Shown here in pieces: positions 197-62,900 of a stretch of DNA of 64,000 bases. Numbering within the stretch: position 1 is the stretch's first letter; each line of letters begins with the position of its first letter. Origin of the DNA: Candidatus Binataceae bacterium (GTDB lineage Bacteria; Desulfobacterota; Binatia; Binatales; Binataceae); NCBI GenBank assembly GCA_041491005.1, contig JBGPUE010000010.1, forward strand, positions 178 through 64,177. The letters run 5' to 3'. The position numbers and the translations under genes are program-made. The notes beneath the pieces were generated by a model, which saw only the letters and a list, made by a program, of their open reading frames with translations, did not search any database and was not told where the DNA came from.

Positions 197-2293
197 TTGC
201 CCACGTTAACCGACATGCGCGCGCTAATGCGAGACCTCGCCGCCGAGCCGGCTCACAGTCAAAGACGGAGCAACCTTCCTCGCGACCAGGCACACTCACT
301 CGAATCGTCCGAAGCGCAAGAACAGATAGCAACGACAGATGACATGGCATCACGTCTGAGAGATTCCGAAGAGGAGCGCGCCGAGATTCTCAACCGCCTC
401 CAGTTTGCTTCACTGAGCCAACAGCATCTCGAGCAGCGAATCCTGGCCCTGGAGAACAGTTTTGTTTCCCGCTGCTTTCGGTCACTGGGCCGGGTCTACG
501 ATACCACCCGGGCGAGACTCGCCTACAAACTCGCCAATTCCCGCTTCAACCCTTACTATCTGAAGCTCAGGCGCACGGACCCACGAGGACGCCTTTACCG
601 GCAGTGGGCGCAGCTCGAGGAGGCATGCGCCCCATCACCCGAGTGGCATCGGCAGCAAGCGCATCGATGGCACTATCGCCCGCTGGTCAGCATCGTTACG
701 CCGGTGCACAACCCCAAGCGACAGTGGCTGGATGCCGCGGTCTCCTCGGTTGTCGGTCAAACGTACGATAACTGGGAGTTGTGCGTTTGCGACGACGCTT
801 CCCGCGAGGAATGGGTGGCCAAATTCCTCGACGCTAAAGCAAAGGCTGACTCTCGCATCCGGGTTGTCGGGTCAAACACGCCTATCGGCATCTCGGGCGC
901 TCTCAACCTCGCCGGAAGCCTTGCCCGCGGCGAATATGTAGGCTTCCTTGACCATGATGATCTCCTAAGCCCCTACGCTCTCCATTACGTCGTCGAGGCG
1001 CTTCAGGATTCGAACTTCGATCTCATCTACACAGACGAAGACATCGTGAACGAACAAGGAAACCGCATCTTGCCTAACTTTAAGCCAGGATGGTCGCCGG
1101 AGCTGTTGGCCGCCTGCATGTACATCAATCATTTCATGGTGGTATCGCGGCGGCGGCTCGATCAGGTTGGTTGGTTTAGATCTGAATGCGACGGCGCCCA
1201 GGACTACGACCTCGCCCTGCGCCTCAGCGACCTTACGCCGAGCGTTCAGCACTTGCCGCGCGTCCTGTATCACTGGCGTCGGCATGAGGGTTCGTCGATA
1301 GCTGATTCATCGGCGAAGCCTTATACTCACAACGCGGGGCGCCGCGCCCTCGCGGACGCCGTTGAGCGGCGTGGCCAGGACGCGGAAGTGGAAGATGGCC
1401 CGCGCCCGAACACGTACCATCTCAAATACCGGCCGTCCCGCACACCGTTGGTCAGTCTTATAGTTTGTTCGAGGCGCCACAAACTGCTTAGGCGCTGTCT
1501 ATCCGCGTTGAAATCCAGAACTGATTATCCAAACCGTGAAATCATCGTCGTCGAGCACTCGGGCGACGACGAAGCGATAGAGAAGCTGATCGAGCGCTTC
1601 GCGTGCCGGCGGGTTGTTTACTCGGCACCGTTCAACTTCTCATCAATGAACAACAGCGGAGTTGCGGTCGCCGAAGGCGAAGTGCTGGTCCTTCTGAACG
1701 ATGATGTCAAGCCGCTCGACTCGCGCTGGCTTGGCTATCTGGTGAGCCAGTTGGAGCGCCCTGAAGTGGGCGTCGTAGGCGCGAAGCTGCTCTACCCTTC
1801 CGGAGCGATCCAGCACGCGGGCTTGGTCATCGACGCGCTTGTCGGGGCGGCGCATCCCGGGCGCGGTTCCTTCACCAGTGGCTACTGGCCCTGGCTGGAT
1901 CTCACGCGCGATGTTTCCGCCGTTACCGGAGCATGCCTTGCGATTCGTAAGGACCTTTTTGAGCGGGTAGGTGGTCTGGACCCTTCGTTTCCGATGAACT
2001 ACAACGACGTAGATCTCTGCCTTAGAGTGAGGCAGTTGGGTTTCCGCGTTGTCTACGAGGCACGTGCTGTATTGTGCCACTATGAGGCCAGCACTCGCGC
2101 GCCAGGCATCGGCTACAAAGAACGGGAATCGTTCTTCGGGCGCTGGCCAGAGTCGTTCGCAAAGGGGGACCAGTACTACAATCCCAACCTTACTGCCGAG
2201 GCCGAAGTGTTGCCGGACTTAGAAGTGCTTCAACGGCGGGTCAGCGCTAGGCAAGTGACGGCGTTTTCTGGCACGCAGATCGCTCGATCCTAA
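197..2293 (+). CDS. Tandem two-module family-2 (GT-A) glycosyltransferase with coiled-coil-like N-terminus
   Basis: 698-aa ORF. Two GT2 modules each open with the typical first strand and an acidic DxD-type motif: VSIVTPVHNPKRQWLDAAVSSVVGQTYDNWELCVCDDAS...GFLDHDD and VSLIVCSRRHKLLRRCLSALKSRTDYPNREIIVVEH...VLLNDDV. The N-terminal ~100 aa are acidic and heptad-like (EEERAEILNRLQFASLSQQHLEQRILALEN). The true start among several in-frame Met is not resolved. Confidence 0.85.
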   Translation: MPTLTDMRALMRDLAAEPAHSQRRSNLPRDQAHSLESSEAQEQIATTDDMASRLRDSEEERAEILNRLQFASLSQQHLEQRILALENSFVSRCFRSLGRVYDTTRARLAYKLANSRFNPYYLKLRRTDPRGRLYRQWAQLEEACAPSPEWHRQQAHRWHYRPLVSIVTPVHNPKRQWLDAAVSSVVGQTYDNWELCVCDDASREEWVAKFLDAKAKADSRIRVVGSNTPIGISGALNLAGSLARGEYVGFLDHDDLLSPYALHYVVEALQDSNFDLIYTDEDIVNEQGNRILPNFKPGWSPELLAACMYINHFMVVSRRRLDQVGWFRSECDGAQDYDLALRLSDLTPSVQHLPRVLYHWRRHEGSSIADSSAKPYTHNAGRRALADAVERRGQDAEVEDGPRPNTYHLKYRPSRTPLVSLIVCSRRHKLLRRCLSALKSRTDYPNREIIVVEHSGDDEAIEKLIERFACRRVVYSAPFNFSSMNNSGVAVAEGEVLVLLNDDVKPLDSRWLGYLVSQLERPEVGVVGAKLLYPSGAIQHAGLVIDALVGAAHPGRGSFTSGYWPWLDLTRDVSAVTGACLAIRKDLFERVGGLDPSFPMNYNDVDLCLRVRQLGFRVVYEARAVLCHYEASTRAPGIGYKERESFFGRWPESFAKGDQYYNPNLTAEAEVLPDLEVLQRRVSARQVTAFSGTQIARS

Positions 2294-2408
2294 CCTGCGC
2301 ACGGGAAGCACGGGGTGCTCCTGCGCAAAAGATTCGTGATGCCAGTGGGCTGCGCCGAGAATTTGGAGCCGGGTCCAGCGGCCTCGAGAGAGGAGTCGAC
2401 GCTTCAAG

Positions 2409-5400
2409 ATGGCGAGCGACAGGCACAGCCCGAGCACGCAGGCGGCAGGTAGTCAGGGATTGGAGGTCAAGCCCGACGGTATCCGCGCTGACGGCGGTTC
2501 GGGGCGGCAGGCCGCTGCGATGCGATCCGAGATCGTTTCACCGGACGGCACGGAGCTCTCTCGTCTCTATAACGAGCACTATTTCCAGACCGGTTGCGGC
2601 CCGATCCCTTACGATCGCACGGAACCTTGGCTCACGTTTTTTGGAAACATTGCGGAACAGGTGATCCGTAGCCTCCGGCCGCGCAAGGTTCTCGACGCCG
2701 GCTGTGCGATGGGATTCCTCGTCGAGTCCTTTTGGGATCGAGGTGTCGAAGCTTGGGGGATAGACATCTCTCCTTACGCCATCTCCAGGGTTCGACCTGA
2801 CATGAGGCCGTTTTGCGCAGTTGGTTCGCTTACCGATCCGCTGCAAGGCCCCTTCGATATAGTCGTTTGCACCGAGGTCATCGAGCACATTCCCTCAGAG
2901 CATGAACGGACCGTGGCGGAGAATCTGTGTGCCGCCACCAGCACAATCCTCTTCTCTTCCACGCCCTCTGACTTCGCGGAGGCGACCCACTTCAACGTCC
3001 GGCCGCTTATCTACTGGCTGAGACTATTCTCCGAGTTCGGTTTCTGGCCAGATCTACTATTCGATACGAGCTTTGTCGCGCCTCACGCAATGCTGCTCAG
3101 GAAGAGCGAACAGCGACTGCCGGAAGAAGTGCTGGTGCTGTTCGCCGAGACCCTCCGTCACAAGGCGGCAATTCATGAGCTCAACACCCAGCTCGGTTCG
3201 GCAACCAGTGCATTGCAACAGGCGCGCGGCGATCTCGAAACGGTCCGAGCTCAGGAAGGGCGTGTCCGGCAAGAGACCGTGAGGCTCAAGCAAGCACTCA
3301 ACGCCGCCGAGCGCCGCCTCAGCGATACCTTCGCCAGCCCGGGCTGGAGAGTGATCGAGCGATACCGCGGCTGGGTTCAAAGGCAGCGACGGCTCCGCCC
3401 GCGATTATTCAATCGATACGAGAGAGTCGCGCTCTGGGCGCTTAGGCGGATAGCTCACGAACAGCGCCCAAGTAGACAGCCTGATAGAGGCCGTCGCGCG
3501 ACCGACCAACCTGTGACGCCCGACAACGATCCATCGGAGCCTCCGGCAAGTGCAATCGCGGAGGCCCAAGAACGTCCCGACCAAAGCATCTCCCGGTTCC
3601 TGCTGATCATCAGCGGCTGCCCAGGCGATGCCTACCGGTATCGCGTCGAGCACCAGGCGGAGGAGCTTCGCCTGCTCGGGTTGTCTGTCGAGGCCGCCCT
3701 ATTCGACGCAGTCGACTACACCAGCGTCATAACTCAATACAGCGCCTTTGTTCTCCATCGGGTGCCGCACACTTCAGGCATCGAGCAGTTCATCGATCGG
3801 GCAAAGAGGCTGGGCAAACCCGTTATCTTCGATACGGATGATTTGATTTTTAGCGAGAGCTTCATCGGAGACATTAAGGCAATACGTGACTTCGCGCCCG
3901 ACGAGTACAATCTCTACATAGATGGCGTGAGGCGCTACCACAGAACGCTCTCGCAATGCGCAGCCGCAATCGTTACCACGGAGCCTCTGCGCGACCGGGT
4001 CAAAGAGTCATTCCCCGATCGGCCTGTGTACGTCAATCGAAACGCCGTCAGCGACGAGATGCTCCAGCAGGCCGACTTCGCGCTCGAGCATATACCGAAA
4101 ACTGACGATGGTCTGGTCCGAATTTTATACATGAGCGGAACCAGCACACACAACGATGACTTCGCCCAGTGTGTTCCGGCGCTCGCGCGAATACTCGAGG
4201 CGTACCCGAACGTGCGCCTTATGATTGTCGGTCATCTCGACGTACCTGAACGTCTACGTAGCACGGTGGACCGGCTGGAGATTAGTCCGTTCATGCCATG
4301 GCAGGAATTGCCAGCGCTCATGCGCCGCGCAGACATCAATCTTGCGCCGCTCGAGCTGAATAACGCCTTCACGGAATGCAAGAGCGAACTGAAGTATTTC
4401 GAAGCCGGTCTGCTGGAGCTTCCGACGGTGGCCTCCGACCTGCCCGCCTATCGAGTCGCGATCACCCACGGCGAGAACGGGTTTCTGTGCCGAAGCGAGC
4501 AGGAGTGGTTCGAAACGCTTGAGCGGCTGGCGCTGGACCCCGCGCTGAGACGACGGGTCGGAAGCCGGGCGCGCACGGACGTACTCGCCCGTTACACAAC
4601 CCGCAGTCGTGCCCCTCAGCTCGCGACGGCGTTGCGCCGGATATTCACTGACCTCCGCCTCAATGCTCAAGGCCGTCTTTCTGTGGCGATCGTGATGCGA
4701 GCGCCTATAGCGCAGACGGGGGGAGGGTACCGGAATATCTTCGCCCTTGCGAACCATCTTGCGGCACGCGGACACGACGTACATCTGTATGTCGAGGCGA
4801 TTGCTCACCTCGAGGGAATGAACGATGCTCAGATAGTCTCGTTTTGTCACCGACATTTCGGAGAGAGTGCGGCTCAAATTCACGTTGGCCACGATCAGAT
4901 TCTCGCCAGTGACATTGCCGTCGCCACCAACTGGCCCACGGCCTATGCCGTCACCGCGCTCGAGAGCACGAGATGCAAGGCGTACCTGGTTCAGGACTTC
5001 GAACCGGATTTCTACGATCGGGTGGATCCGGCCCATGAACTGGCAGAACGGACCTACGACCTTCCGCTCAGGAAGATCACGTTGGGGAAGTATCTCCAGA
5101 AGCTGTTTTGCGAGCGTGACCGCCTGCCAACCCACCACATCCCCTTTTCCATTGACTCATCAATCTACCGCAACCTCAACACTCGGCCCCAATCGCCCGT
5201 CCGAGTCCTGTTCTTTGCGCGGCCGGGCCTGAAACGGCGCGCGTACCCGGTCGGCGTGAAAGCCTTGCGAATCTTGGCGCGCGCGTGCCCTGAAGTTGAG
5301 ATCGCGTTCTACGGTATGGTCGAGCGAGAGGAACTGGGGTTCGCCTATCAACACCTCGGGGAATTGTCCTCATCCGAACTCGCGCGGGAGATGAACCGCA

Positions 5401-6629
5401 GTCACATTCACCTCTCATTCTCCTTGACCAACATCTCGTGGGTGCCTTTCGAGGCGATGGCGTGTGGCTGCGCCGTCGTCGAAGCCAGGGTTCCCACCGT
5501 CGAGTCGTGGATGGAAGGGGAAGGCACCAACTCGCTGCTGGTTGACCCGGAGCCGAGAGCCGTCGCAGACGCTCTCATCACGCTCGTTAGAGATGCCGGC
5601 TTGCGCAAGCGGATAGCGGCCAATGGCGAAAAGCATGTAGCAAGGATCTCGTCGAGTTGGGAAGCGGCCTGTGCCCAGTTTGAAAGCATACTGCTTGACG
5701 CAGTATTCAAACAGTATCTTCCTACAGAGGGAGCGCTAATCACATCGCGAGACGGCCGCTTCGATGGGAAGATATTCTACGTACGCGGCGGGAGGCGTCG
5801 CTGGGTGCAGGATCTGGCACGGGCAGGGGAAGCGGGGTTGCGCACTACCGACGGCGTGTTGCGGCTGTCCGACGATGAGATAGCCAAGCTACCGCTGGGC
5901 GGGTACGTTCCTCGCGACTGGACGCTCGCTGATTGGAAATCGCCGCCGGCGACGGCACCGCTGCGCGAGATCGCAGCGTCAAGACTGACAGGCTCCGGCC
6001 TTGAGTTCGGAGCAGGCGACAATCCTTTCCCCACCCCATTGCACTGCGAGGTCCGCTACGTCGATAGGCTGCCACAGGAAGAGTTTGCCGCGCAGTATCA
6101 TCCAAACGAGAACATCGACGCCGTACGGCCTGATATGATCACAGGCCTTTGCCAAATGGAGGGCATTTCAAACGAGAGCGTCGACTTCGTCATCGCATGC
6201 CATGTGCTCGAGCATACGGCAAATCCGCTTCTTGCTTTGCGAACGGCATACTTGCGTCTGAAGCCGGGCGGCCAGTTGGTGCTCGTCATTCCGGACAAGC
6301 GCTATACCTTTGACCGGCAGCGCGAGCTGACTCCACTCGAACACCTGATTCTAGACTACGAGTCGCCCTCGCCTGACAGAGATCGTCAACATTGGCAGGA
6401 GTGGTACACGAAAGCCTTTCCAGTGTCTCCTGAGCAGATCGACGGATCAATCGCGTCTGCGTTGGAGCGCGACGCTGACATTCACTACCATACCTGGACC
6501 TACGAGAGTTTTACGGAAATGGTCGAATATGCGCGCCGCGACCTCGCTCCGTGGTCCGCCGTGTGGTCCCATCCTGTACGAAGAAATACCGAGGAGGGAA
6601 TCGAGTTCTACTTCGTCCTGACAAAATAG
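2409..6629 (+). CDS. Giant multidomain glycan-assembly enzyme: SAM methyltransferase - coiled coil - two GT-B (GT4-like) glycosyltransferase modules - second methyltransferase-like domain
   Basis: 1406-aa ORF. N-terminal class I MTase motif I VLDAGCAMGFLVESF and EVIEHIP. Heptad-like stretch HKAAIHELNTQLGSATSALQQARGDLETVRAQEGRVRQETVRLKQALNAAERRL, then SPGWRVIERYRGW. GT-B module 1 (VIFDTDDLIF, ILYMSGTSTHNDDF, SELKYFEAGLLELPTVAS). GT-B module 2 (GGGYRNIFALANHLAARGHDVHLYVE, WVPFEAMACGCAVVE). C-terminal MTase-like domain (GLEFGAGDNP, FVIACHVLEHTANP, LKPGGQLVLVIPDKRYTFD). The start could be the internal Met at 2520. Confidence 0.8.
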   Translation: MASDRHSPSTQAAGSQGLEVKPDGIRADGGSGRQAAAMRSEIVSPDGTELSRLYNEHYFQTGCGPIPYDRTEPWLTFFGNIAEQVIRSLRPRKVLDAGCAMGFLVESFWDRGVEAWGIDISPYAISRVRPDMRPFCAVGSLTDPLQGPFDIVVCTEVIEHIPSEHERTVAENLCAATSTILFSSTPSDFAEATHFNVRPLIYWLRLFSEFGFWPDLLFDTSFVAPHAMLLRKSEQRLPEEVLVLFAETLRHKAAIHELNTQLGSATSALQQARGDLETVRAQEGRVRQETVRLKQALNAAERRLSDTFASPGWRVIERYRGWVQRQRRLRPRLFNRYERVALWALRRIAHEQRPSRQPDRGRRATDQPVTPDNDPSEPPASAIAEAQERPDQSISRFLLIISGCPGDAYRYRVEHQAEELRLLGLSVEAALFDAVDYTSVITQYSAFVLHRVPHTSGIEQFIDRAKRLGKPVIFDTDDLIFSESFIGDIKAIRDFAPDEYNLYIDGVRRYHRTLSQCAAAIVTTEPLRDRVKESFPDRPVYVNRNAVSDEMLQQADFALEHIPKTDDGLVRILYMSGTSTHNDDFAQCVPALARILEAYPNVRLMIVGHLDVPERLRSTVDRLEISPFMPWQELPALMRRADINLAPLELNNAFTECKSELKYFEAGLLELPTVASDLPAYRVAITHGENGFLCRSEQEWFETLERLALDPALRRRVGSRARTDVLARYTTRSRAPQLATALRRIFTDLRLNAQGRLSVAIVMRAPIAQTGGGYRNIFALANHLAARGHDVHLYVEAIAHLEGMNDAQIVSFCHRHFGESAAQIHVGHDQILASDIAVATNWPTAYAVTALESTRCKAYLVQDFEPDFYDRVDPAHELAERTYDLPLRKITLGKYLQKLFCERDRLPTHHIPFSIDSSIYRNLNTRPQSPVRVLFFARPGLKRRAYPVGVKALRILARACPEVEIAFYGMVEREELGFAYQHLGELSSSELAREMNRSHIHLSFSLTNISWVPFEAMACGCAVVEARVPTVESWMEGEGTNSLLVDPEPRAVADALITLVRDAGLRKRIAANGEKHVARISSSWEAACAQFESILLDAVFKQYLPTEGALITSRDGRFDGKIFYVRGGRRRWVQDLARAGEAGLRTTDGVLRLSDDEIAKLPLGGYVPRDWTLADWKSPPATAPLREIAASRLTGSGLEFGAGDNPFPTPLHCEVRYVDRLPQEEFAAQYHPNENIDAVRPDMITGLCQMEGISNESVDFVIACHVLEHTANPLLALRTAYLRLKPGGQLVLVIPDKRYTFDRQRELTPLEHLILDYESPSPDRDRQHWQEWYTKAFPVSPEQIDGSIASALERDADIHYHTWTYESFTEMVEYARRDLAPWSAVWSHPVRRNTEEGIEFYFVLTK

Positions 6630-6764
6630 AGCGCGACCGGACCTGGCAAAGAACATTCTCCGCTCGCATTCTGCCACACTCGGCGCCGATGCTTAGTTGA
6701 ATGCTCGACGTCATACGATGACCCTCGCAAGCAATCGCTTGTCACACTTCTCAAAGGATAGAGA

Positions 6765-7499
6765 ATGATAACGCGCGCGGACTACCAGCGGAATAGGTTC
6801 GCTTTCCTCACCGGTCTAACGGACGTGAAGAAAGGCCTCGGTTTGGAAATTGGCGCCGGCGATCTGCCCACGGTCCTGCCCGGCGCCGGCAGATGCCTGC
6901 ATGCAAACATGTACGGCAAGAGAGATCTGGTGACGCTCTTCAATCTTCCTGCCGAGCAGGTGCCTGAGGTCAATTACGTAGTGAGTCGGCGGCAGCCCCT
7001 GTCGGAGCAGATTGGATTGCAAACCTTCGACTACGTTTTTCTGGCCCACGTGATTGAGCATGTGGCCGACCCGATTGGTTATGTCAAGGATCTGACAAAT
7101 CTCTTGAGACAAGATGCGCTGATCGTGATGGCAGTTCCCGACAAGCGCAGAACGTTCGACAATCCCCGACCGGCAACTGCGATTGAGCATATCCTCAGCG
7201 ACTATCACGAGAGAGCCATGTACCCGTCGGTGGAACACATAATGCAGTTCGCACCGTGCATCATCGACGAGCTCAAAGGCAAAGATTCGGTCGAGCTATA
7301 CCAATGGGCACAGGCCAACCACGAAAGTGGTGCGGCAGATGTCCATTGTCACGTTTGGACAGACGAAGACTTCTTCCGCCAAGTCGACGAGATCAGACGA
7401 GCTGGTCTTTGGACCGGGCTGACAGTCGTGGCCAAATGGCCGAACAGTGGTGACTTCAACGAATTCATGATCGCGTTGAGGTACACGGGAGGGCGATAG
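6765..7499 (+). CDS. Class I SAM-dependent methyltransferase-like protein, paralogue of the C-terminal domain of the preceding giant ORF
   Basis: 244-aa ORF. GLEIGAGDLP, FDYVFLAHVIEHVADP, IVMAVPDKRRTFD and VHCHVWT align by eye with GLEFGAGDNP, VDFVIACHVLEHTANP, LVLVIPDKRYTFD and IHYHTWT encoded at about 5990-6629. Confidence 0.7.
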   Translation: MITRADYQRNRFAFLTGLTDVKKGLGLEIGAGDLPTVLPGAGRCLHANMYGKRDLVTLFNLPAEQVPEVNYVVSRRQPLSEQIGLQTFDYVFLAHVIEHVADPIGYVKDLTNLLRQDALIVMAVPDKRRTFDNPRPATAIEHILSDYHERAMYPSVEHIMQFAPCIIDELKGKDSVELYQWAQANHESGAADVHCHVWTDEDFFRQVDEIRRAGLWTGLTVVAKWPNSGDFNEFMIALRYTGGR

Positions 7500-8577: not shown

Positions 8578-11500
8578 TCATCCGAGGGTGATGCGTACTC
8601 GATGGGTCACGCCGTCGTTAGCCAGGGGGATAACGGGTCGGTTTCTCGACAGAGCTTCGCCGTCGAGCTCGATGGAGGCAATTCCGCGACTCACTCCGCG
8701 CGGGTTCTCCACCGCGATCTCATAGCGCGCAGAATGGTATAGGAAGACGATTTCGAAGCGTGGCCAAGCCTTCGGCACACACGGATCGATGACCAGGGTT
8801 GCGCCCCGCAAACGAAATCCGAGTATCCGCTCAAGGCCCACCCGATACATCCACGCGGCCGAGCCAGTGTACCAAGTCCATCCACCGCGTCCGACATGGG
8901 GAGGCGTAGCGTAGATGTCGGCACAAGCGACGTACGGTTCCACCTTGTAGCGATGAATGCCGGCGCGCGTGCTGGCGTGATTGATGGGATTCAGCATCGA
9001 GAATAGCTCGCCGGCTTTGTCTCCCTCGCCCAGCATGGCGAATGCAAGCACCGACCAAATTGCGGCATGTGTGTACTGGCCACCGTTTTCCCGGATTCCA
9101 GGTGGGTATCCTTTAACGTATCCAGGGTCGAGCGGTGCCAGATCGAACGGAGGGGTGAAGAGTAGGACCAGTTTTTCGTTCCGGCGGACGAGATATTTCT
9201 CCACCGCCGCCATCGCGGTTGCAGCGCGAGCCGGATCGGCGGCACCGGAGATCACTCCCCACGATTGCGCGATCGAATCAATTCGACATTCGGTACTCGA
9301 AGCCGAACCGAGCGGTGAGTCGTCGTCGAAGTAGCCCCGCCGGTACCAGTCGCCATCCCAGCCGTCTCGCTCAAGGGATTGCTTGAGAGCGGCCGCGTGT
9401 CGGCTCCAGTTTGCAGCGCGCGCATTCTCTCCGCGGTCATCGGCCAGGTGAGCGAAGTCGGAAAGCGTGGAATAAAGGAACCAGCCAAGCCAGATGCTCT
9501 CGCCTTTTCCCTTCTCACCGACCCGGTTCATGCCGTCGTTCCAATCGCCGGTGCCGATCAGTGGCAGGCCGTGGTGACCCACCGCGAGACTCACGTCAAG
9601 GGCCCGGGCGCAGTGCTCGAAGAGCGTGACGCGTTGCTCGGAAACCATCGGTCGAAAGTACGATTCGTGCTCGTCGGCACGGAGGGTTGGGCCTTCGACA
9701 AAGGGGACCATCTCGTCGAGGACTGCGAGGTCGCCTGTGACCTCCACATAATGGGCTGCCGCATACGGCAACCATACCCGGTCGTCGGAGATCCGGGTGC
9801 GAACCCCCTGGCCAGATGGCGGGAGCCACCAATGCTGAACGTCGCCCTCGGCGAACTGCCGCGCGGCCGCACGCAACAGATGCTCCCGCGTCACTTCAGG
9901 CGTCGATGCAGCGAGCGCCATCACATCCTGAAGCTGGTCGCGAAAGCCGTAGGCGCCGCTCGCTTGGTAAAACGCCGACCGAGCCCACACGCGGCATGCC
10001 AGTGTCTGGTAGAGCAGCCAGCGGTTCATCAGAATGTCCATCGCTCGGTCGGGTGTCTTCACTTGAACTGCGCCGAGGATCTCGTCCCATTGCCGAGTGA
10101 CCGCCCTGAAGACCGAATCCAGGTCTGTGGTTCGGTAGCGCGTGATCAAGGAAAGCGCCTCCGCCTTCGTCGCCGCCTCGCCGAGAAAGAAGACAATTTC
10201 GGCCGCACTGTTCGGCGCAAGCTGAAGCTGAGTCTGCAGGACGCCGCAGGGATCGAGACCGGCGCCGACCCGATCGGAGAGCGGCGTTGCGCTGGCGAGC
10301 GCGGCCGGAGAATCGAGCGTGCCGTTGCGGCCAACGAACTCCGTGCGGTCGCCGGTCCAAGCGCTTTGGCGTCCGGCGAGGTCGGCGAACGCCACGCGAC
10401 TACCGAAATCGTTACTCCGAGGGTTCCGCGCAAGCATCGCTCCGGTCGTCGAATCGATTTCCGTGACGACGAACGGCGCAGAAGTGATGCGGGAAGCGCC
10501 GAGCACCCACTCCACGTATGCGGTGACCGAAAGACGCCGCGATCGCGCCGAGAGATTCCGAATCTTCAACCGGGAAATCTTGATCGGATCCTCGGGGGAT
10601 ACATATTGCAGAAGTTCGAGCGAGATCCCGTGCGAAGTGTGCTCGAAGCGGCTGTAACCTTGGCCATGCCGAACGACGTACGGCGAGGTCTCCTCGCGAA
10701 TCGGCAGAGCGGTGGGACTCCAGAACGCACCTGTCGCTTCGTCACGAACATAGATCACCTCGCCCGGAGGGTCGGAGACGGGGTCGTTGGACCAAGGAGT
10801 GATCTGGTTCTCGCGGCTGCTGATCGACCATGTGTAGCCAGAGCCGGCGGCCGACACTTGGAAGCCAAACGAGCGATTCGCGATCACATTCACCCATGGC
10901 GCCGGTGTCCATAGCGCCTCGCTGAAGATTGTCACGTATTCTCGCCCGCCGGCGGCGAAGCCGCCGATGCCATTGAAAAACTCCAGGCTCGTTTGGGGCG
11001 GCGTAGCCTTCGGCTGTTCGTTCGCCGGCGCAGACTCGCGTCTCGGGGGCGGCGCGATGGCGGGTTGAGATTCCTCCAGGCGATTGACCTGCTCGGTGAG
11101 GCTTCCGTGGTGGCTGAGAAGCACCGCCCGGGCGGTGCTCTGAAGCAGGCTTCGCACCTCGACCGAGATCAGATCGGAGCGCAACACAAACACTGCTCCC
11201 CGCGCCGCTTCTCCGTCGGCCTGCGGCCGCGATTGGTTCGCACGGACCAGCGCTTCCAACGTGGCCTGCAGATCCTGATCGTAGGACGAAGGCTTTTCAT
11301 TCAGAATCACGAGATCGACGTCGAGCTGCTTCATCCGCCAGTATTCGTGGGCGCGGACCAATTGCCGAACGATCTCTCGATCCTCTGCTTCATCGATCCG
11401 GACCAACACGATCGGCAGGTCCCCGGAGATTCCGTGGGCCCATAGCGTCGAAGATCCGCGCTCGCTCCGCTTGAGCACCTCGGACGAAGGCCGCATCGTC

Positions 11501-14500
11501 GGGTTGGCATAGATGACGTGATTGGCGATGCGCTGGAAGAGGTGCGCTTCGTCGGGACTGACGCCGAGATGGTGCAGCTCCACCTGAGCCTGCGTCCAGG
11601 CCAGAGTGACCGCGCGCTCGAAGGCTGTAAAGTCGTGGTGCTTGTCTGCCAAGTCAAGCGCTTCGACTCGGGAGGGTGCGATCAGGGTCCAGAATGCGAC
11701 GCGCGCCCGGCCACCCGGCGGAATTCTTAAACGGTGGCGAAGGCTGAAGATCGGATCGAGCACGGTGCCGACCGTGTTGGAAAGCGGCCGGCCGTCGATC
11801 ACGGATATCGGCGTTCGGATCCCTCGCGCACGCCCAAGGAACGCCGCCCGGTCGGTCTCGAATTGCAAGTCGCCCACCGTCTCGCCTTCTACTACGGCAA
11901 GGTGGGCTGCCCAGACCGGCGCCTCGCCGGGCGACCGCAGCCGCCGCGTTGCCATCACAGCGCCCACGTCGGCGACGAATTCCGTCTGCACGAACAGCTT
12001 GGAGAAGGCGGGGTGCGCGGCGTCTTCCGCTGGGGGCGCCAAGACGACCTCAGCATAGGAGGTCACCTCGATTTCCCGATACCGGTTTCCAAGGTTTGAG
12101 ATCGATACGCGGCGAACCTCGGCGTCGTCCTCGGGCGAAACCGCGATCTCGAGTGTTGTCGTGAGCGTCCCGTCGCGCCTCGTGATTTCGGCTCGATCCT
12201 CGGAGAACACCACCCCGTAACTATCCGGCTCGACGCCGGTCGGTTGATATCCCGCCGACCATACTTCGCCGGTACGCACATCGCGCAGAAAAACGTACGT
12301 TCCCCAGGAGTCGCAGGTAACGTCTTCTCGCCAACGCGTGACCGCGAGGTCCCGCCAACGGCTGTATCCGGAACCCGCTGCAGTGATCATCACTGCGTAT
12401 CTGCCGTTCGAGAGAAGGTGCGTGCGCGGAATCACGTCGTGTGGCGATCGGAATCGTCGCAGCATCGGCGCAACGATCTCGCGGATGTTGGGGGCCACCT
12501 TCACTTCCTCGGCACGCGGACGCGCAACCAAAACGTCGCGCGGAGTTCGTTCTTGCAGCAAGAGTTCCGTCGCCTGCATGACTGGCGCGGCGTGAAAACG
12601 GGCGCGCATCGTTCCGTTCCGGAGAGCGTCGTCAATCGCGACCAGAGTCATCCCCTGGTGATGCGCCATAAAAGCTCGAACGACCGCCACGTCTTCGCCC
12701 TCAGGGAGGCGCGTCGGCGTGTAGTCAAGAGCCTCATAGTAGCCATAGCGGCCGAGGCCACCGGCCGCAGCGAGACGTGTGAAGTTTCGCGCCGCAGCTT
12801 TGGCATCTACCATCGCGGCGAGGGCCGTTGCGTAAGGGGCGACGACGACGTTCTCGCTGAGTCCGCGCTTGAGCCCCAGTCCAGGGACGCCAAAATTTGA
12901 GTACTGATAGGTGAGCTCCAGATCTCGCGCGCTGTAAGCCGATTCCGAGACACCCCACGGCACGCCGAGCTCGGCGCCATACTTCATTTGCCGGCGGACG
13001 ACGAGGCGATTCGACTGCGCGAGCAGGCTCCCCTCCGGTGCGCGCATCACCAACGACGGCATCAGGTACTCGAACATCGAACCCGACCACGAGATCAGGG
13101 CCGAACCGCGATCTACCGGCGTCAGGTCGCGCCCGAGCCGGAACCAATGGCGCGCCGGCACGTCTCCCTTGGCGATCGCCACGAAGCTGGCCAAGCGTGC
13201 CTCAGAGGCGAGCAAGTCATAGCAGTTTGGATCGAGGCTGCCTTCCGCGACCCGGTACCCAATCGCAAGAAGTTGCCGCGCTGGGTCGAAGAGGAAGCCG
13301 AACTCCATGGCCTCGAACATTTTCCCCGCCATTTCGCCGAGCGCCGCGAGGCGACGTTCGAGCACGCGTGCGGCGTTCGCGGAACGTTCGAAGGCGTCAA
13401 TCAGAGCGTCGGCTCGCACCACCGCGGCAGATACTCCACGGGCGTGCGGGTCAAGTTCCGATCGGTAACGCGTCAGGCCTCTGATCGCCTCTTCGCAGTG
13501 ACCCGGCAGATCGGCAATGGTCGGAACGGATTCGAACAGATAGCCGAGCACCTCCTCCAGCGGAGCGTCTCCATCTACCGCTCTCTCAGCGGCGACGAAC
13601 GCGACGTCGCCCGCGAGCTTCGCCCATGGCATCAACTGTTCGACGTCGCGCTGATGACTCAGGATCGACGCCCGCACCGCTTCTACCCAGTTCAGCACTT
13701 GGGCGCTAGCGTCGTCTCCCCGTTCCTGGTTGAGCGTCCACGCAATGTCGACGGCCGTGTGGGCGTCAAGCGCGAGCCCCGCAAGGCGCCTTCCAACATC
13801 CGCCGGAGTCGTGGCAGGACTTCGCAGCGAAGCGGTGAGAGCGTCGAGTGCGTCCTCGATATGCTTTCGAGTTACCGTTTGAGTCCGCCGATCGTCAGCG
13901 AGCAAACGCAGACACTCGCGGGCGATTTCCAGCGCGTCATCGATCCCGGCGAGCCATCCCGGCCTCGGCACTGGACCGCCGATCATCTCCCGCAAAGCGT
14001 TCTCAAGGGCGATCAGGTGTCCCGCCAGATTCCCGCTATCCACAGACGAGACATATTTGGGGTCTAGCGGACGAAGCTTCCGCGTGTCGTACCAGTTGTA
14101 GAAGTGGCCGTGGAAGCGTTCGAGTCCGCTCATCGTCGTGAGAGTCGCGTCCAACCGCTCCAATGTTTCGAGCACACCCAGCCAGCCGAAATCGTGCGCG
14201 GCGGTCACGGACAGAAGATACAATCCGAGGTTGGTGGGCGACGTCCGATGAGCCAGCATTGGGATTGGTTCTTCCTGGAAGTTGTCAGGCGGAAGCATGT
14301 GATCCTCCGCGGTGACGAAGGTCTCGAAGAAGCTCCAGGTGCGGCGGGCGATGAGCTTGAGTGTCTGCGCATCTGTCTCGGAGGGCGGATTTGGGCCCAC
14401 CATGGGCGGTGGAAGGCTCGCCCATCGCGCGACCGCCGGCGATAGCATCCACAGGATCACGAATGGAGCCGCGATCGGCCATGACCCACCCCCCAAGCAT

Positions 14501-17442
14501 GCGACGATGACGACGGCCACAACCGCAAGGGCGACACCGCCAGCCATTCGCCAATACGATCCGCGAAGATCAAGCCGGGTGCGGAACTTCGCCTGAGCGG
14601 CAGTAACCCACTCGAGCAGCCTCCGACGCCTCACGAACAGGCGGAAGAGCGTTCGCGAGATGGCGTCGGTCATCAACCACGCCTGATGCGCGAGGAATGT
14701 GACCACGAGCGCGATCTGTAAGAGAGCGACCAGGAGATCCGCGCCCACCGCGCGCAGATGGGTCCGCTTGGAGATACCGAGCCGTCGGGGCGCGATCCCG
14801 GCGAGCAGAGGCAACAGGGCAGGCACCGCGATCGTGACGAGCACGAAGGCGCTCCAGATTTTCGCGGAAAACAAGGGAAGAGACCATCCTGCCAGCAATG
14901 CCAGCAAGGCGGCCGGCGCCGACAGCGTTCGGCGCAGGTTGTCGATCATTTTCCAGCGGCCGATCAACGGAATCGCCGTGCGGCCCGGTTCGCCTTTTGG
15001 GTCGCGTCCCCGGCCGAAGATCCAGGGAAGTAATTGCCAATCGCCGCGCGCCCACCGATGCTGCCGCGCCGCGGCGACGTCATAGCGTGATGGAAACTCC
15101 TCGACCACCTCGATGTCAGAGACCAGTCCGGCCCGCGCGAAAATTCCTTCAAGCAGATCGTGACTCAGGAGCGTGCTGTCGGGAACCCGCCCTTCGAGAG
15201 CGGCTTCAAAGGCGTCCACGTCGTAGATTCCCTTACCGCTGTACGAACCCTCGCCGAAGAGGTCCTGGTATACGTCGGAGACGGCAGCCGCATACGGGTC
15301 GACGCCGCTGGCGCTCGAAAAGACACGCTGGAAAAGCGACCCGTCCCGACCGCTCGGCAACGACGGAGTAACTCGCGGCTGAAGCACCCCGTACCCCTCG
15401 ATCACGCGGCAGGAATGCGGGTCGAGGGTCGGACGGTTGAGCGGATGCGCCATCTTACCGATTAGCCGCTTGACGGCTCCCCGCGGTAGTCGCGTATCCG
15501 CGTCGAGCGTGATCACGTAGCGGACGCCGGGAGGCACGACCGGGAGGCGGGAGCCCATTGGCAGGAAGGTTGTGTCAGTCGCTCCGCGAAGCCATCGATT
15601 CAGCTCGTGTAGCTTGCCGCGCTTGCGTTCCCACCCGATCCACTTTCCCTCCCCGTCGTTCCAGATCCGCCGACGATGGAGCAGGAGGAATCGTTCCCCG
15701 TCCGGCGCCGGACCGTACAGCCGGTTCAGCCGCTCGATTCCCGCGACGGCTGCGCCGAGGAGCTTGTCGTCGCCCGGAGCATTCTCGGTGGCGCAGTCTG
15801 TCCAGTCCGAGAGGAGAGCGAAACGAAGATCGCCATCGGGAGTCGCGAGATGATGGACCTCGAGACGCTCGATCTGCTCCTCAAGTTCCGTTGGTGTCGT
15901 CAAGAGGGTGGGCACGACAACCATCGTGCGCAGACTCGACGGGACCCCGTCTCGAAGCTCCAGCCCAGGCAGTATCTTCGGGCCGAAGCAATTCATGACG
16001 CCGAGGTTCACCAGGGCCACACTCGCATCCAACGCCGGAAGGAATGCCAGGAGCGCGAGCATGACGAGAGTCCATCCGCCGACACCGGACTTTGCCACGC
16101 CGAGCAACAGTAGCGCGGAAATAAGCGTGACGACGATCGCGATGGTTCCGAGATAGCCCAGAATTCCCGCGGCCGCGTTGGCGCGAACGAGCCGTTGTCG
16201 CACCGGAACCTGAAATCCGATCTCGTTCTCGAGGGCCCGACGCCCTTTCGAGATGAGGTAATAGCCCGGCTCTTGCTCGCGGCGTGGGGTCGCCTCATCG
16301 CCGTTCACAGGATCTGCTGCCGCCCGCTTGGCGGCCACAATCGCCGATCGCGCGATATCGAGTTCCGTATGCGCCGACCCTCGCGCGAGCTCTTCGATCG
16401 CGTGCCTGTAGCGATCTCGAGTCGGGAAGTCCATTTCGGCAAAGTTGCCGCCGGCGCGGAGCACCGCATCAACGAGACTGACACTCTCGAAGAGTTCCGC
16501 CCAATCCACCGCGGACATCAGGCGCATGCTCATGATCGCATTGCGCACTGTCACGTTCATCGCGCCCTGCCTCTGATGCTCCTGACGGACGATCTCGTCG
16601 GCGGTCGTTCCCTGGGCTGCAAGGCGTTGGTCCAGCCAAAGGAGCGCTGGCGTCACGGTTGGGTCCTGATCGCGTAACCGCTGGACCAACTGAACCGCAA
16701 AGGCCGTCGGCAACGAGGTCTGATCGAAGCGTCGCAGAACAGTCTCCAGCGTCTCGCCCTTGCCATTGCCGACTCCCAATAGCCTGTCGGCTAGAGCGTC
16801 GGCCTCCTGGCGAGCCGCTCGACCCCTCACGATCCGCTCGGCCAAGCGCCGCAAATTCTCCACGAGCACGATTCGAAGCGTAATGGCAACGGCCCAGAGT
16901 TCGCCGATCGTCAGAGGCTGCACGCGCTGATAGGCCTGTAGGAACCGGGACAGCATCTGCGGATCGAAGCGGCTGTCGGTATGCGCAACGAAGGCCCAGG
17001 CAATTCCGAATACGCGGGGATAGCCTTCAAGTGGTCCTTCTGCAATTTTGGGCAACTGGCGATAGAAACCACGCGGAAGATCGTCCCGGACCTCGCGAAT
17101 TTGTTTTTCTACGACGTGGAAGTTGTCGACCAGCCATTCCGCCGCAGGCGTAATTGCGCGTTCCTCACGGATCGCTGCCGCGATCGCGCGATACGCTTTG
17201 AGCAGCACGCGACCATTTTCGCGCAGGCGTTTCAGCAGCCGTGAAGTAGTACCCGGCCTCGTCGTGACAGGCTGAGCAGCCGCAAGGCTCTCCGCATGCT
17301 GTTCGAGGCGCTCGATGCTGAACAATTCGGCGCGAATCGGCTCTTCAGCGTCTCCGGCGGTGGCCGCCAGCGGACCGTTAAGAGCTCGAAAAAATGAATA
17401 CTTCAAGTTTGCCTCTCGGCTTGGTGAACGCACCGAGAGCAA
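8578..17442 (-). CDS. ndvB: Cyclic beta-1,2-glucan synthase (ChvB/NdvB/Cgs type; GT84 + cyclisation + GH94-like domains)
   Basis: Single 2954-aa ORF. N-terminal PIRAELFSIERLEQHAESLA and several hydrophobic TM blocks. GT84-type module (VITLDADTRLPRGAVKRLIGKMAHPLN; QHRWARGDWQLLPW). Central helical glucan-binding region (SPTNLGLYLLSVTAAHDFGW). C-terminal GH94 phosphorylase-like region (GTGDWNDGMNRVG; RENGGQYTHAAIW). Size and domain order match the known cyclic glucan synthases. Confidence 0.9.
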   Translation of the reverse strand: MLSVRSPSREANLKYSFFRALNGPLAATAGDAEEPIRAELFSIERLEQHAESLAAAQPVTTRPGTTSRLLKRLRENGRVLLKAYRAIAAAIREERAITPAAEWLVDNFHVVEKQIREVRDDLPRGFYRQLPKIAEGPLEGYPRVFGIAWAFVAHTDSRFDPQMLSRFLQAYQRVQPLTIGELWAVAITLRIVLVENLRRLAERIVRGRAARQEADALADRLLGVGNGKGETLETVLRRFDQTSLPTAFAVQLVQRLRDQDPTVTPALLWLDQRLAAQGTTADEIVRQEHQRQGAMNVTVRNAIMSMRLMSAVDWAELFESVSLVDAVLRAGGNFAEMDFPTRDRYRHAIEELARGSAHTELDIARSAIVAAKRAAADPVNGDEATPRREQEPGYYLISKGRRALENEIGFQVPVRQRLVRANAAAGILGYLGTIAIVVTLISALLLLGVAKSGVGGWTLVMLALLAFLPALDASVALVNLGVMNCFGPKILPGLELRDGVPSSLRTMVVVPTLLTTPTELEEQIERLEVHHLATPDGDLRFALLSDWTDCATENAPGDDKLLGAAVAGIERLNRLYGPAPDGERFLLLHRRRIWNDGEGKWIGWERKRGKLHELNRWLRGATDTTFLPMGSRLPVVPPGVRYVITLDADTRLPRGAVKRLIGKMAHPLNRPTLDPHSCRVIEGYGVLQPRVTPSLPSGRDGSLFQRVFSSASGVDPYAAAVSDVYQDLFGEGSYSGKGIYDVDAFEAALEGRVPDSTLLSHDLLEGIFARAGLVSDIEVVEEFPSRYDVAAARQHRWARGDWQLLPWIFGRGRDPKGEPGRTAIPLIGRWKMIDNLRRTLSAPAALLALLAGWSLPLFSAKIWSAFVLVTIAVPALLPLLAGIAPRRLGISKRTHLRAVGADLLVALLQIALVVTFLAHQAWLMTDAISRTLFRLFVRRRRLLEWVTAAQAKFRTRLDLRGSYWRMAGGVALAVVAVVIVACLGGGSWPIAAPFVILWMLSPAVARWASLPPPMVGPNPPSETDAQTLKLIARRTWSFFETFVTAEDHMLPPDNFQEEPIPMLAHRTSPTNLGLYLLSVTAAHDFGWLGVLETLERLDATLTTMSGLERFHGHFYNWYDTRKLRPLDPKYVSSVDSGNLAGHLIALENALREMIGGPVPRPGWLAGIDDALEIARECLRLLADDRRTQTVTRKHIEDALDALTASLRSPATTPADVGRRLAGLALDAHTAVDIAWTLNQERGDDASAQVLNWVEAVRASILSHQRDVEQLMPWAKLAGDVAFVAAERAVDGDAPLEEVLGYLFESVPTIADLPGHCEEAIRGLTRYRSELDPHARGVSAAVVRADALIDAFERSANAARVLERRLAALGEMAGKMFEAMEFGFLFDPARQLLAIGYRVAEGSLDPNCYDLLASEARLASFVAIAKGDVPARHWFRLGRDLTPVDRGSALISWSGSMFEYLMPSLVMRAPEGSLLAQSNRLVVRRQMKYGAELGVPWGVSESAYSARDLELTYQYSNFGVPGLGLKRGLSENVVVAPYATALAAMVDAKAAARNFTRLAAAGGLGRYGYYEALDYTPTRLPEGEDVAVVRAFMAHHQGMTLVAIDDALRNGTMRARFHAAPVMQATELLLQERTPRDVLVARPRAEEVKVAPNIREIVAPMLRRFRSPHDVIPRTHLLSNGRYAVMITAAGSGYSRWRDLAVTRWREDVTCDSWGTYVFLRDVRTGEVWSAGYQPTGVEPDSYGVVFSEDRAEITRRDGTLTTTLEIAVSPEDDAEVRRVSISNLGNRYREIEVTSYAEVVLAPPAEDAAHPAFSKLFVQTEFVADVGAVMATRRLRSPGEAPVWAAHLAVVEGETVGDLQFETDRAAFLGRARGIRTPISVIDGRPLSNTVGTVLDPIFSLRHRLRIPPGGRARVAFWTLIAPSRVEALDLADKHHDFTAFERAVTLAWTQAQVELHHLGVSPDEAHLFQRIANHVIYANPTMRPSSEVLKRSERGSSTLWAHGISGDLPIVLVRIDEAEDREIVRQLVRAHEYWRMKQLDVDLVILNEKPSSYDQDLQATLEALVRANQSRPQADGEAARGAVFVLRSDLISVEVRSLLQSTARAVLLSHHGSLTEQVNRLEESQPAIAPPPRRESAPANEQPKATPPQTSLEFFNGIGGFAAGGREYVTIFSEALWTPAPWVNVIANRSFGFQVSAAGSGYTWSISSRENQITPWSNDPVSDPPGEVIYVRDEATGAFWSPTALPIREETSPYVVRHGQGYSRFEHTSHGISLELLQYVSPEDPIKISRLKIRNLSARSRRLSVTAYVEWVLGASRITSAPFVVTEIDSTTGAMLARNPRSNDFGSRVAFADLAGRQSAWTGDRTEFVGRNGTLDSPAALASATPLSDRVGAGLDPCGVLQTQLQLAPNSAAEIVFFLGEAATKAEALSLITRYRTTDLDSVFRAVTRQWDEILGAVQVKTPDRAMDILMNRWLLYQTLACRVWARSAFYQASGAYGFRDQLQDVMALAASTPEVTREHLLRAAARQFAEGDVQHWWLPPSGQGVRTRISDDRVWLPYAAAHYVEVTGDLAVLDEMVPFVEGPTLRADEHESYFRPMVSEQRVTLFEHCARALDVSLAVGHHGLPLIGTGDWNDGMNRVGEKGKGESIWLGWFLYSTLSDFAHLADDRGENARAANWSRHAAALKQSLERDGWDGDWYRRGYFDDDSPLGSASSTECRIDSIAQSWGVISGAADPARAATAMAAVEKYLVRRNEKLVLLFTPPFDLAPLDPGYVKGYPPGIRENGGQYTHAAIWSVLAFAMLGEGDKAGELFSMLNPINHASTRAGIHRYKVEPYVACADIYATPPHVGRGGWTWYTGSAAWMYRVGLERILGFRLRGATLVIDPCVPKAWPRFEIVFLYHSARYEIAVENPRGVSRGIASIELDGEALSRNRPVIPLANDGVTHRVRITLG

Positions 17443-60163: not shown

Positions 60164-60238
60164 TTGCGCGGCTGCCCTGTCGATCCGGTCTCGGCAGGGA
60201 TCCCTTCCTATTATCCATCTAAGGTCAGCTCGATAGTA

Positions 60239-60844
60239 TCATCTCTCGTTGCGAACTTGCCGAGTGCGGTCCGGGGACAATGCGTCGAGGGCGAGGTTCA
60301 GGCGCAAAACATTCACCCCGGGCTCGCCGAAGATTTCGGCCCATCGCCGACTTGTATTCACCCTGACTAGCCGGCGTACCGCGTCTTCGGCCAAGCCTCT
60401 GGTCTTTGCGACGCGGGCGACCTGGATATCCGCGGCGGCCGGGCTGATCTCGGGATCCAATCCACTACCCGACGCAGTGACCAGATCGATCGGTACCTGT
60501 GCCGGCCGCACGCCCTCGGTTTCGACCACCGCCTTGAGCCGCGTCTGGACGGCGTCGATCAGCGTCTTGCTGGTTGGGCCGAGGTTCGAGCCGCCCGAAC
60601 TCAATCCATCGTAGCCCTTCGCCCCAGCCGTTGAGGGCCGCCCGTGAAAGTTGCGCGCACTTGAGAAGTTCTGTCCGATAAGTGACGACCCGACCAGCTT
60701 GCCGTTCACATATACGAGGCTGCCATTGGCCTGTAGCGGGAAGAGCAACTGGGCCACCGCCCAGACTGCCAGCGGGTAGATGACGCCCGTTAGCAACGTC
60801 ATCACCACGGTAAGCCGGGTTGCGATCCACAGTGAACGCATCAT
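60239..60844 (-). CDS. kdpC: Potassium-transporting ATPase subunit C
   Basis: 201-aa ORF with an N-terminal TM, FHGRPS and SGGSNLGPTS...SGSGLDPEISPAAA, typical of KdpC. Confidence 0.9.
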   Translation of the reverse strand: MMRSLWIATRLTVVMTLLTGVIYPLAVWAVAQLLFPLQANGSLVYVNGKLVGSSLIGQNFSSARNFHGRPSTAGAKGYDGLSSGGSNLGPTSKTLIDAVQTRLKAVVETEGVRPAQVPIDLVTASGSGLDPEISPAAADIQVARVAKTRGLAEDAVRRLVRVNTSRRWAEIFGEPGVNVLRLNLALDALSPDRTRQVRNER

Positions 60845-60851
60845 CTGTACC

Positions 60852-62894: not shown

Positions 62895-62900
62895 GACTTC

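Follow-up and report, generated by a model that had tools for sequence, protein, structure and literature searches.

A methyltransferase, coiled-coil, glycosyltransferase and methyltransferase fusion protein of a Candidatus Binataceae bacterium as a probable variant of the coiled-coil terminator/polymerase class

In coiled-coil terminator/polymerase systems of bacterial polysaccharide assembly, a ruler protein carries a terminator at its distal end, a strategy that has been called widespread across bacteria (Kelly et al. 2024, PMC11231755). The polymerase modules either all belong to this ruler protein (WbbB, O12), belong to it in part (ORF6, O7) or lie on separate proteins (WbdD/WbdA; O4) (PMC11231755). 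Another described protein, WsaE, has three functions, since its N-terminal 2-O-methyltransferase caps the chain and two further domains are rhamnosyltransferases; it works with WsaF (PMC2943079, PMC3898925). Here, a glycan locus was analysed in a 64,000-nucleotide (nt) stretch of DNA from a Candidatus Binataceae bacterium (contig JBGPUE010000010.1; hereafter, the window is this whole stretch). The locus encodes a protein of 1406 amino acids (aa), in which an N-terminal methyltransferase (MT1), a coiled-coil-like segment, a Pro-rich linker, two glycosyltransferase (GT) modules and a C-terminal methyltransferase (MT2) follow one another. By analogy, this architecture appears to fit the known terminator/polymerase class, as an interesting variant and not as a new kind of system.

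A fused terminator, ruler and polymerase is not in itself a new idea, because such fusions have been shown experimentally for WbbB (O12) and ORF6 (O7) (PMC11231755) and, without a ruler, for WsaE (PMC2943079). WbbB (Klebsiella pneumoniae O12/Raoultella terrigena) resembles the 1406-aa protein, as read here, in its N-terminal terminator, its coil, the two polymerising GTs in one chain and its peripheral membrane association (PMC11231755). It differs in its terminator, a beta-Kdo (3-deoxy-D-manno-oct-2-ulosonic acid) transferase of family GT99, in its GT102 and GT103 modules, in the lack of a C-terminal methyltransferase and in its position beside wzm/wzt. ORF6 (K. pneumoniae O7) has an N-terminal methyltransferase-containing terminator, a coil and two C-terminal dTDP-rhamnose (dTDP-Rha) GTs, and one further GT comes from a separate protein (PMC11231755), which resembles the split found here with a neighbouring protein bearing two GT2 modules (2xGT2 protein). 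However, ORF6 has a kinase and a carbohydrate-binding module (CBM)-like domain, installs methyl-phosphate and uses GT2 modules, whereas the 1406-aa protein has no kinase, GT4 modules in its chain and a second methyltransferase appended.

The WsaE/WsaF pair (Geobacillus stearothermophilus S-layer glycan rhamnan), compared by architecture only, shares the N-terminal O-methyltransferase, the two GT domains and a WsaF-type GT4. In contrast, no coiled-coil ruler has been described for WsaE, and wzm/wzt directly precede wsaE. WbdD/WbdA (E. coli O9a/O8, K. pneumoniae O3/O5) is alike in the methyltransferase subtype, the motif LDxGCAxGF and, as the protein is read here, a coil followed by a membrane-binding/polymerase-docking region; there, WbdD and the two-module WbdA are separate proteins, the O9a WbdD also carries a kinase, and WbdA is a mannosyltransferase. 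The 1406-aa protein stands apart from the whole class by its GT4 modules, its very short spacer, its C-terminal methyltransferase with a stand-alone paralogue and the absence of a linked exporter in its clade.

A first-pass annotation of this DNA had placed two open reading frames (ORFs) in the locus, 2409-6629 (+, ATG, 1406 aa) and 6765-7499 (+, ATG, 244 aa), and both were recovered exactly there. A third ORF on the same strand, 197-2293 (+, 698 aa), lies directly upstream of the first. The five-part order proposed for the 1406-aa protein held as well, with Pfam, AlphaFold2 (AF2) and Foldseek all agreeing with the domain assignments. Pfam matches comprised Methyltransf_23/11/12/25 at residues 88-189 (best E 6e-24, Methyltransf_23), Glycos_transf_1-type families at 572-738, WsaF_N and WsaF_C at 831-1056, and a second Methyltransf_23 stretch near the C-terminus. 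Residues 1-1100 were modelled with AF2 as a monomer, with 29 homologues in the alignment, at a mean predicted local distance difference test score (pLDDT) of 85; a separate model of residues 1088-1406 reached 94.8. In the larger model, residues 1-45 were disordered, a methyltransferase fold spanned 47-232, and helices were predicted at 239-274, 280-309, 311-329 and 334-351, followed by disorder at 349-392 and by Rossmann-pair modules at 396-748 and 758-1098. NCBIfam gave nothing near any curated cut-off, only generic GT4, GT2 and UbiG-like matches.

The source is a metagenome-type contig, and the C-terminal domain mostly occurs as a separate ~305-aa protein. Both points could suggest that the long ORF is an artefact, formed by a chimeric assembly or by read-through from one gene into the next. 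However, the identical 1406-aa product is encoded on a JGI contig and on a Logan contig besides the source contig. The closest homologue, P0002 (L003 1843-6276), comes from a different sample and has the same GT-GT-MT2 fusion, with 64% identity over that part; P0252 (GT4, WsaF-like, MT2) shares this order, and P0248 joins a WsaF-like GT to MT2. Furthermore, AF2 was confident across the domain junction, and MT2-family members are fused in many other proteins. Because the product recurs in other assemblies and the fusion in P0002, P0252 and P0248, an assembly artefact was rejected as extremely improbable.

The MT1 fold was modelled at a pLDDT of about 90. Its motif I reads LDAGCAMGF, with Ala instead of the second Gly; at the corresponding position, the WbdD methyltransferase of known structure reads LDLGCAQGF. 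Residues D96, G98, C99, A100, G102 and D119 were conserved in at least 90% of the aligned homologues and were invariant in an alignment of MT1 domains only (A3). A profile of MT1 matched WbdD at E 2e-6, with only UbiG and BchM ranking higher. The domain had been annotated as a class I S-adenosylmethionine (SAM) methyltransferase, and its SAM-binding motifs are indeed intact, as judged from the Rossmann-like fold, the LDAGCAMG variant also present in the SAM-binding WbdD, and D119 after strand 2.

In the order of MT1 (47-232), helices (239-309), amphipathic helix and GT modules, the coil separates the candidate terminating domain from the polymerase modules and from the putative membrane-facing end. 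No kinase domain was found beside MT1: the domain ends at 232, the helix starts at 239, AF2 predicted no extra fold and Pfam no kinase match. Therefore, if MT1 caps the chain, it would add a plain O-methyl group directly, as reported for WsaE (PMC2943079), and not the methyl-phosphate of the O9a/O3 and O7 termini (PMC11231755). This bears on the earlier comparison with the WbdD/WbdA pair of E. coli O9a. The likeness extends to motif I, the position of MT1 distal to the GTs, the amphipathic helix after the coil and the variable spacer, but not to the O9a type, which would have a kinase. The E. coli O8 type or WsaE, with a direct O-methyl cap, would thus be the closer analogue.

A heptad-like segment of ~70 residues had been noticed in the first pass, and it was borne out by the AF2 helices 239-274 and 280-309 in a single register. 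Residues 241-305 lie in one uninterrupted heptad register, with L/I/V/M/F at 13 of the 22 a/d positions (1-9 in the six other registers), and this register passes through the predicted helix break at 275-279 (GSATS). At full extension, the coil of ~70 residues, or ~10 heptads, would be ~10 nm long. Its end is at S310-PGWRVIERYRGW, and the motif that closes it is SPGWRVIERYRGW. A hidden Markov model (HMM) of this closing motif matched 74 of the 120 best homologues, in each case behind a spacer. The distance between the end of MT1 and the motif ranged from 34 to 312 residues in these 74 proteins (median 158; 76 here), with conserved flanking domains, and such variation of a spacer between conserved domains would be expected for a ruler.

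Directly after the motif, at residues 331-349, the helical hydrophobic moment reaches its maximum for the protein (0.76), together with a net charge of +4. Residues 310-351 are thus a putative peripheral membrane anchor or docking element. The stretch leading to the GT modules had been described as a Pro-rich linker, in agreement with a pLDDT <50 at residues 349-392 and 8 Pro in 346-396. As a side observation, an S-x-x-W-R...(Y/P)R motif (here residues 310-322) directly follows the coil in many proteins of this class; it has the form SPSWRFSRPLR in P0329, whose N-terminal methyltransferase is of the MT2 family. This motif may serve docking or membrane binding.

The identification of two GT-B, GT4-like modules was confirmed by Pfam, AF2 and Foldseek. 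GT module 1 matched the Pfam families Glyco_trans_1_4, Glyco_trans_1_2 and Glycos_transf_1 at 572-738, showed the alternating beta/alpha pattern of two Rossmann folds at a pLDDT >90, and had many residues invariant among its homologues. Foldseek matched the modules 396-748 and 758-1098 to the GT4 enzymes MshA, WsaF, PimA and ManT. GT module 2 scored 60.0 bits against WsaF_C (cut-off 27) and 21.7 bits against WsaF_N, below the cut-off of 27. It matched WsaF from the PDB at E 5e-10, and by Foldseek at E 2e-11. The WsaF residues R249, R254 and E333 are kept in it as R938, R943 and E1015.

The 698-aa protein encoded upstream has an N-terminal part of ~130 aa, helical and unassigned, and then two GT2 (GT-A) modules. 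Among the 120 homologues of the 1406-aa protein, 57 contain a middle part that aligns with residues 133-667 of the 698-aa protein (E down to 2e-117), and these fused homologues have the order methyltransferase, coil, 2xGT2, WsaF-like GT. In L003 and L006, the 2xGT2 gene adjoins the homologue of the 1406-aa gene. Because of these fusions and this adjacency, the two proteins almost certainly act together, with a predicted total of four GT modules. The first-pass annotation had suggested a self-contained polymerase/terminator for a homopolymer. A self-contained enzyme is unlikely, since the neighbour is part of the same polypeptide in almost half of the homologues, and the four GT modules implied here argue both against it and against a simple homopolymer, which is thus unsupported. 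By eye, SRCFRSLGRVY in the 2xGT2 protein looked like the motif of the 1406-aa protein, and a shared coil/SPGWR element was considered; it was rejected because BLASTP found nothing, the motif HMM stayed below noise and the heptads were weak (8/19).

The model of residues 1088-1406 consists of a beta-rich subdomain followed by a class I methyltransferase core. Foldseek matched MT2 to class I, SAM-bound methyltransferases (probability 1.0, E 3e-9). Sequence-profile and Foldseek comparisons with solved structures gave only generic class I methyltransferases, none of them close and none with a functional clue. In the family motif I, GxGxExGAG, residues G1195, G1197, E1199 and G1201 are invariant, and D1219 after strand 2 is nearly so. 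H1265, E1268, H1269, D1302, R1305, T1308, H1312, H1359 and H1361 are also invariant in the family, which has the His-rich motifs H..EH, TFD..R..T...H and HxH. The earlier assignment of MT2 as a second methyltransferase domain is therefore upheld, with its SAM-motif residues intact, and the 244-aa protein retains all invariant family residues in the alignment A1. MT2 belongs to a different family from MT1. At E<=1e-30, this family has 1501 representatives (50%-identity clusters), most of which are stand-alone proteins of ~305 aa including the beta-rich subdomain. That subdomain (~1107-1180), absent from the 244-aa paralogue, possibly binds the substrate.

The product of ORF 6765-7499 had been called a paralogue of the C-terminal domain, and BLASTP agreed (27% identity over 193 residues, E 3e-20), with all four sequence blocks quoted at the time present in the alignment. 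The 244-aa protein matched other MT2-family members (E 1e-23 to 6e-26) better than MT2 itself (2e-19). The paralogy is therefore ancient, between two subfamilies of a large family, and not a recent duplication. A stand-alone MT2 orthologue with 44% identity is encoded in a Nostocales cluster of wzm, wzt, MT-GT2, WsaF-like GT, MT2, GT2 and GT2. Other family members are fused C-terminally to WsaF-like GTs or are N-terminal in proteins of ~1000 aa with a GT2 module behind a spacer, in one case followed by a short coil and an SPSWR motif. Such neighbourhoods and fusions tie the MT2 family to glycan assembly.

On this evidence, and with moderate confidence, we favour the reading that the 1406-aa and 2xGT2 proteins form a membrane-peripheral polymerase/terminator complex, and that the locus 197-7499 encodes some of the components of a coiled-coil terminator-plus-polymerase system, which would assemble a glycan on the cytoplasmic face. 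The basic amphipathic helices after SPGWR would anchor the 1406-aa protein peripherally to the membrane. The two GT4 modules and the two GT2 modules of the upstream protein would together extend a lipid-linked glycan. The coil would act as a short ruler and hold MT1 ~10 nm away, so that MT1 would O-methylate the non-reducing end once the chain reaches it, and growth would stop. MT2, located on the polymerase modules, and its stand-alone paralogue would add further methyl groups, most likely to internal residues or at a second position.

Several observations weigh against this proposal. Three methyltransferase domains are more than capping requires. The spacer is short (76 residues, against the median of 158) and was modelled as a monomer only. 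In vitro, methylation by WsaE, the nearest analogue with a methyl cap, did not depend on chain length (PMC2943079). In GT module 2, the WsaF donor residues Y247 and K302 are changed to F936 and E985, and TNISWVPFE stands in place of PHPSYPPLE, which the authors of the WsaF study proposed as a rhamnose signature (PMC3898925). No wzm/wzt was found in the 64-kb window, and no ABC (ATP-binding cassette) transporter was found in the six closest loci (45-64% identity) within 10 kb on each side, or less at contig ends. Lastly, the glycan genes lie at a contig end that continues upstream for only ~160 bp beyond the window.

The form TNISWVPFE is closer to TNLSLLPLE and TNLSYLPVE, found in fucose- and 6-deoxyaltrose-using relatives of WsaF (PMC3898925), than to PHPSYPPLE. 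Because rmlC and rmlD directly precede the closest homologue P0002 in L003, a dTDP-6-deoxy-L-hexose, though not necessarily rhamnose, is a reasonable guess for the donor. The window itself has no rml genes.

An ABC-transporter link, drawn in the first pass from the O9a analogy, found no support within the DNA covered for this clade, as no such transporter was present in the window or in up to 10 kb on each side at the six closest loci, with ~160 bp recovered upstream of the window. ORF 197-2293 is preceded by ~240 bp of non-coding DNA and, just beyond the window, by the end of another gene, of which the last 39 residues are uninformative. The six closest loci contain rmlC, rmlD, a Bac_transf initiating transferase, PMT_2 GT-C enzymes, a GT2-GtrA-methyltransferase fusion, asparagine-synthase homologues, further methyltransferases, a sulfotransferase and unannotated polytopic membrane proteins. 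Farther away, a scan of species-representative genomes found a Wzt-like ATPase within 10 kb in more than half of 80 more distant loci. In L017 and L032, proteins with MT1 and both GT modules adjoin wzm and a wzt with Wzt_C. Both methyltransferase families are associated with wzm/wzt glycan loci elsewhere. The Wzt of L028 is short and without Wzt_C; in L026, where the match covers only the two GT modules, wzt has Wzt_C. Polytopic proteins of ~515 aa, for which 9-11 transmembrane segments are predicted and no Pfam match is on record, adjoin close homologues beside PMT_2 GT-C enzymes (L006 10835-12388, L009 6081-7619). In a clade with no linked wzm/wzt, such proteins are candidates for handling the glycan in the periplasm.

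The absence of linked exporter genes in this clade would also fit a polysaccharide that is never exported, a polymethylated cytoplasmic storage or carrier polymer like the mycobacterial methylmannose polysaccharide. That pathway (ManT, MeT1, MeT3) likewise combines a polymerising GT4 enzyme with several sugar O-methyltransferases, as several methyltransferases are found here, and the methylmannose-polysaccharide mannosyltransferase of M. hassiacum was the second-best Foldseek match to the GT modules. However, the ManT match reflects the generic GT4 fold only, with MshA, WsaF and PimA scoring equally, and the mycobacterial pathway is cytoplasmic and lipid-independent, with separate small enzymes, no coil and no membrane-linked neighbours. 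Close homologues have Bac_transf, PMT_2 GT-C and GtrA-type genes nearby, as is typical for glycans that are lipid-linked and exported; linkage to wzm/wzt is seen in the wider family, and the basic amphipathic helix suggests membrane association. A cytoplasmic polymer is thus very unlikely.

The main rival to a capping MT1 is that all three methyltransferase domains decorate along the chain, yielding a heavily O-methylated, hydrophobic polysaccharide; the helix would then do no more than oligomerise, or act as a scaffold for the GT2 and GT4 proteins, and length would be set otherwise. This idea fits a small locus that has three methyltransferase domains from two families, and also related loci with up to three further stand-alone methyltransferases, the short coil and the lack of a linked CBM-bearing Wzt in the close clade. 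On the other hand, MT1 at the far end of a variable-length coil is the arrangement of every characterised terminator (PMC11231755). MT1 also shares motif I with WbdD, and distant relatives with MT1 adjoin wzt genes bearing Wzt_C. In characterised systems, Wzt_C modules recognise chain termini. Decoration without capping is therefore a serious but rather doubtful explanation. Less probable still is a bolder combination, in which a polymerase with methyltransferases at both ends and a third beside it makes a multiply O-methylated, hydrophobic deoxyhexose polymer, measured by a very short ruler and exported by a non-Wzm/Wzt route (e.g. GT-C/polytopic proteins), with MT2 as a new class of co-polymerisation glycan methyltransferases. 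The features behind the favoured terminator/polymerase reading are listed in Table 1.

Table 1 Coordinates of the glycan locus features in the window, with the evidence for each.
Feature	Window positions	Strand	Evidence
Upstream 2xGT2 partner	197..2293	+	Pfam Glycos_transf_2 165-292 (E 3e-34), Glyco_tranf_2_3 419-633
MT1, residues 47-232, candidate chain-capping O-methyltransferase	2547..3104	+	Pfam, AF2, WbdD-like motif I
Coiled-coil-like spacer, residues 239-309	3123..3335	+	AF2 helices, one heptad register
SPGWR..YR motif and basic amphipathic helices, residues 310-351	3336..3461	+	Motif HMM, hydrophobic moment, AF2
Disordered Pro-rich linker, residues 352-395	3462..3593	+	pLDDT <50 at 349-392
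GT module 1, GT-B GT4/Glycos_transf_1 type, residues 396-748	3594..4652	+	Pfam, AF2
GT module 2, WsaF-like GT4, residues 758-1098	4680..5702	+	Pfam WsaF_C, PDB WsaF, Foldseek
Small beta-rich subdomain before MT2, residues ~1107-1180	5727..5948	+	AF2 strands and short helices, pLDDT 85-97
MT2 class I methyltransferase core, residues ~1181-1406 and stop codon	5949..6629	+	AF2, Foldseek, invariant residues
Stand-alone MT2-core paralogue, 244 aa, without beta subdomain	6765..7499	+	BLASTP, alignment

Related loci differ in the arrangement of these parts. The N-terminal methyltransferase of P0002 is unrelated to MT1 (VLDIASGEGYG motif), and in L003 the 2xGT2 partner is encoded downstream of P0002 instead of upstream, with rmlC and rmlD on the upstream side. 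In P0003, P0015, P0041, P0043, P0044, P0046 and P0289, and at L008 15828-16598, a sulfotransferase domain (PF13469/PF00685) replaces the methyltransferase, or a sulfotransferase gene adjoins. This pattern suggests that terminating or modifying modules may be swapped on a common polymerase chassis.

At the start of the 1406-aa ORF, residues 1-45 (window 2409-2543) are unconserved and predicted to be disordered, and for this reason translation may really begin at Met38 (window 2520). For the ATG at 2409, the nearest sequence resembling a Shine-Dalgarno element is a GGAG ~14 nt upstream. Promoter and terminator scans of the DNA gave matches at chance expectation, and Rfam and tRNA scans of the whole window were empty. 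The G+C content is 0.616 for the whole window and ~0.59-0.61 for ORF 197-2293 and the MT1-to-GT part of ORF 2409-6629. It is 0.581 over MT2 and 0.554 over the stand-alone paralogue 6765-7499. The lower values may hint at a separate acquisition of the MT2-type modules.

The rest of the window contains unrelated housekeeping genes, among them dehydrogenases, RtcB and the kdp operon. Convergent with the glycan genes, a 2954-aa ORF (8578-17442, -) is similar to cyclic beta-1,2-glucan synthases and has a glucoamylase-like domain besides the supersandwich (E 8e-171) and catalytic (E 7e-124) domains of GH94; over its first ~1400 residues, Pfam gave no match at E<=1e-3. The kdp potassium-uptake cluster (57162-63851, -) has KdpB and KdpC and a KdpA that is cut by the window end. 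Its KdpD sensor/Usp part (58946-60163) overlaps a separate HAMP-PAS histidine kinase ORF (57162-59042), and a sigma-54 activator follows.

The best named relative of the 1406-aa protein comes from a Solibacteraceae metagenome-assembled genome (55% identity), and Bryobacteraceae and Solibacter names occur among the protein matches; judged by these relatives alone, the clade would probably be acidobacterial. The result refines an annotation and does not amount to a new kind of system. How bacteria measure the length of a polysaccharide is best understood from coiled-coil terminator/polymerase proteins, and to our knowledge those characterised are all from a few Enterobacteriaceae and one Geobacillus. 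The present protein appears to extend this logic to an environmental lineage, with Solibacteraceae and Bryobacteraceae as its nearest named relatives. It could thus help to test whether ruler and chain length scale with each other beyond the model systems, which function the large MT2 family (~1500 uncharacterised clusters at E<=1e-30) has, and by which route such glycans may be exported where no wzm/wzt is linked.

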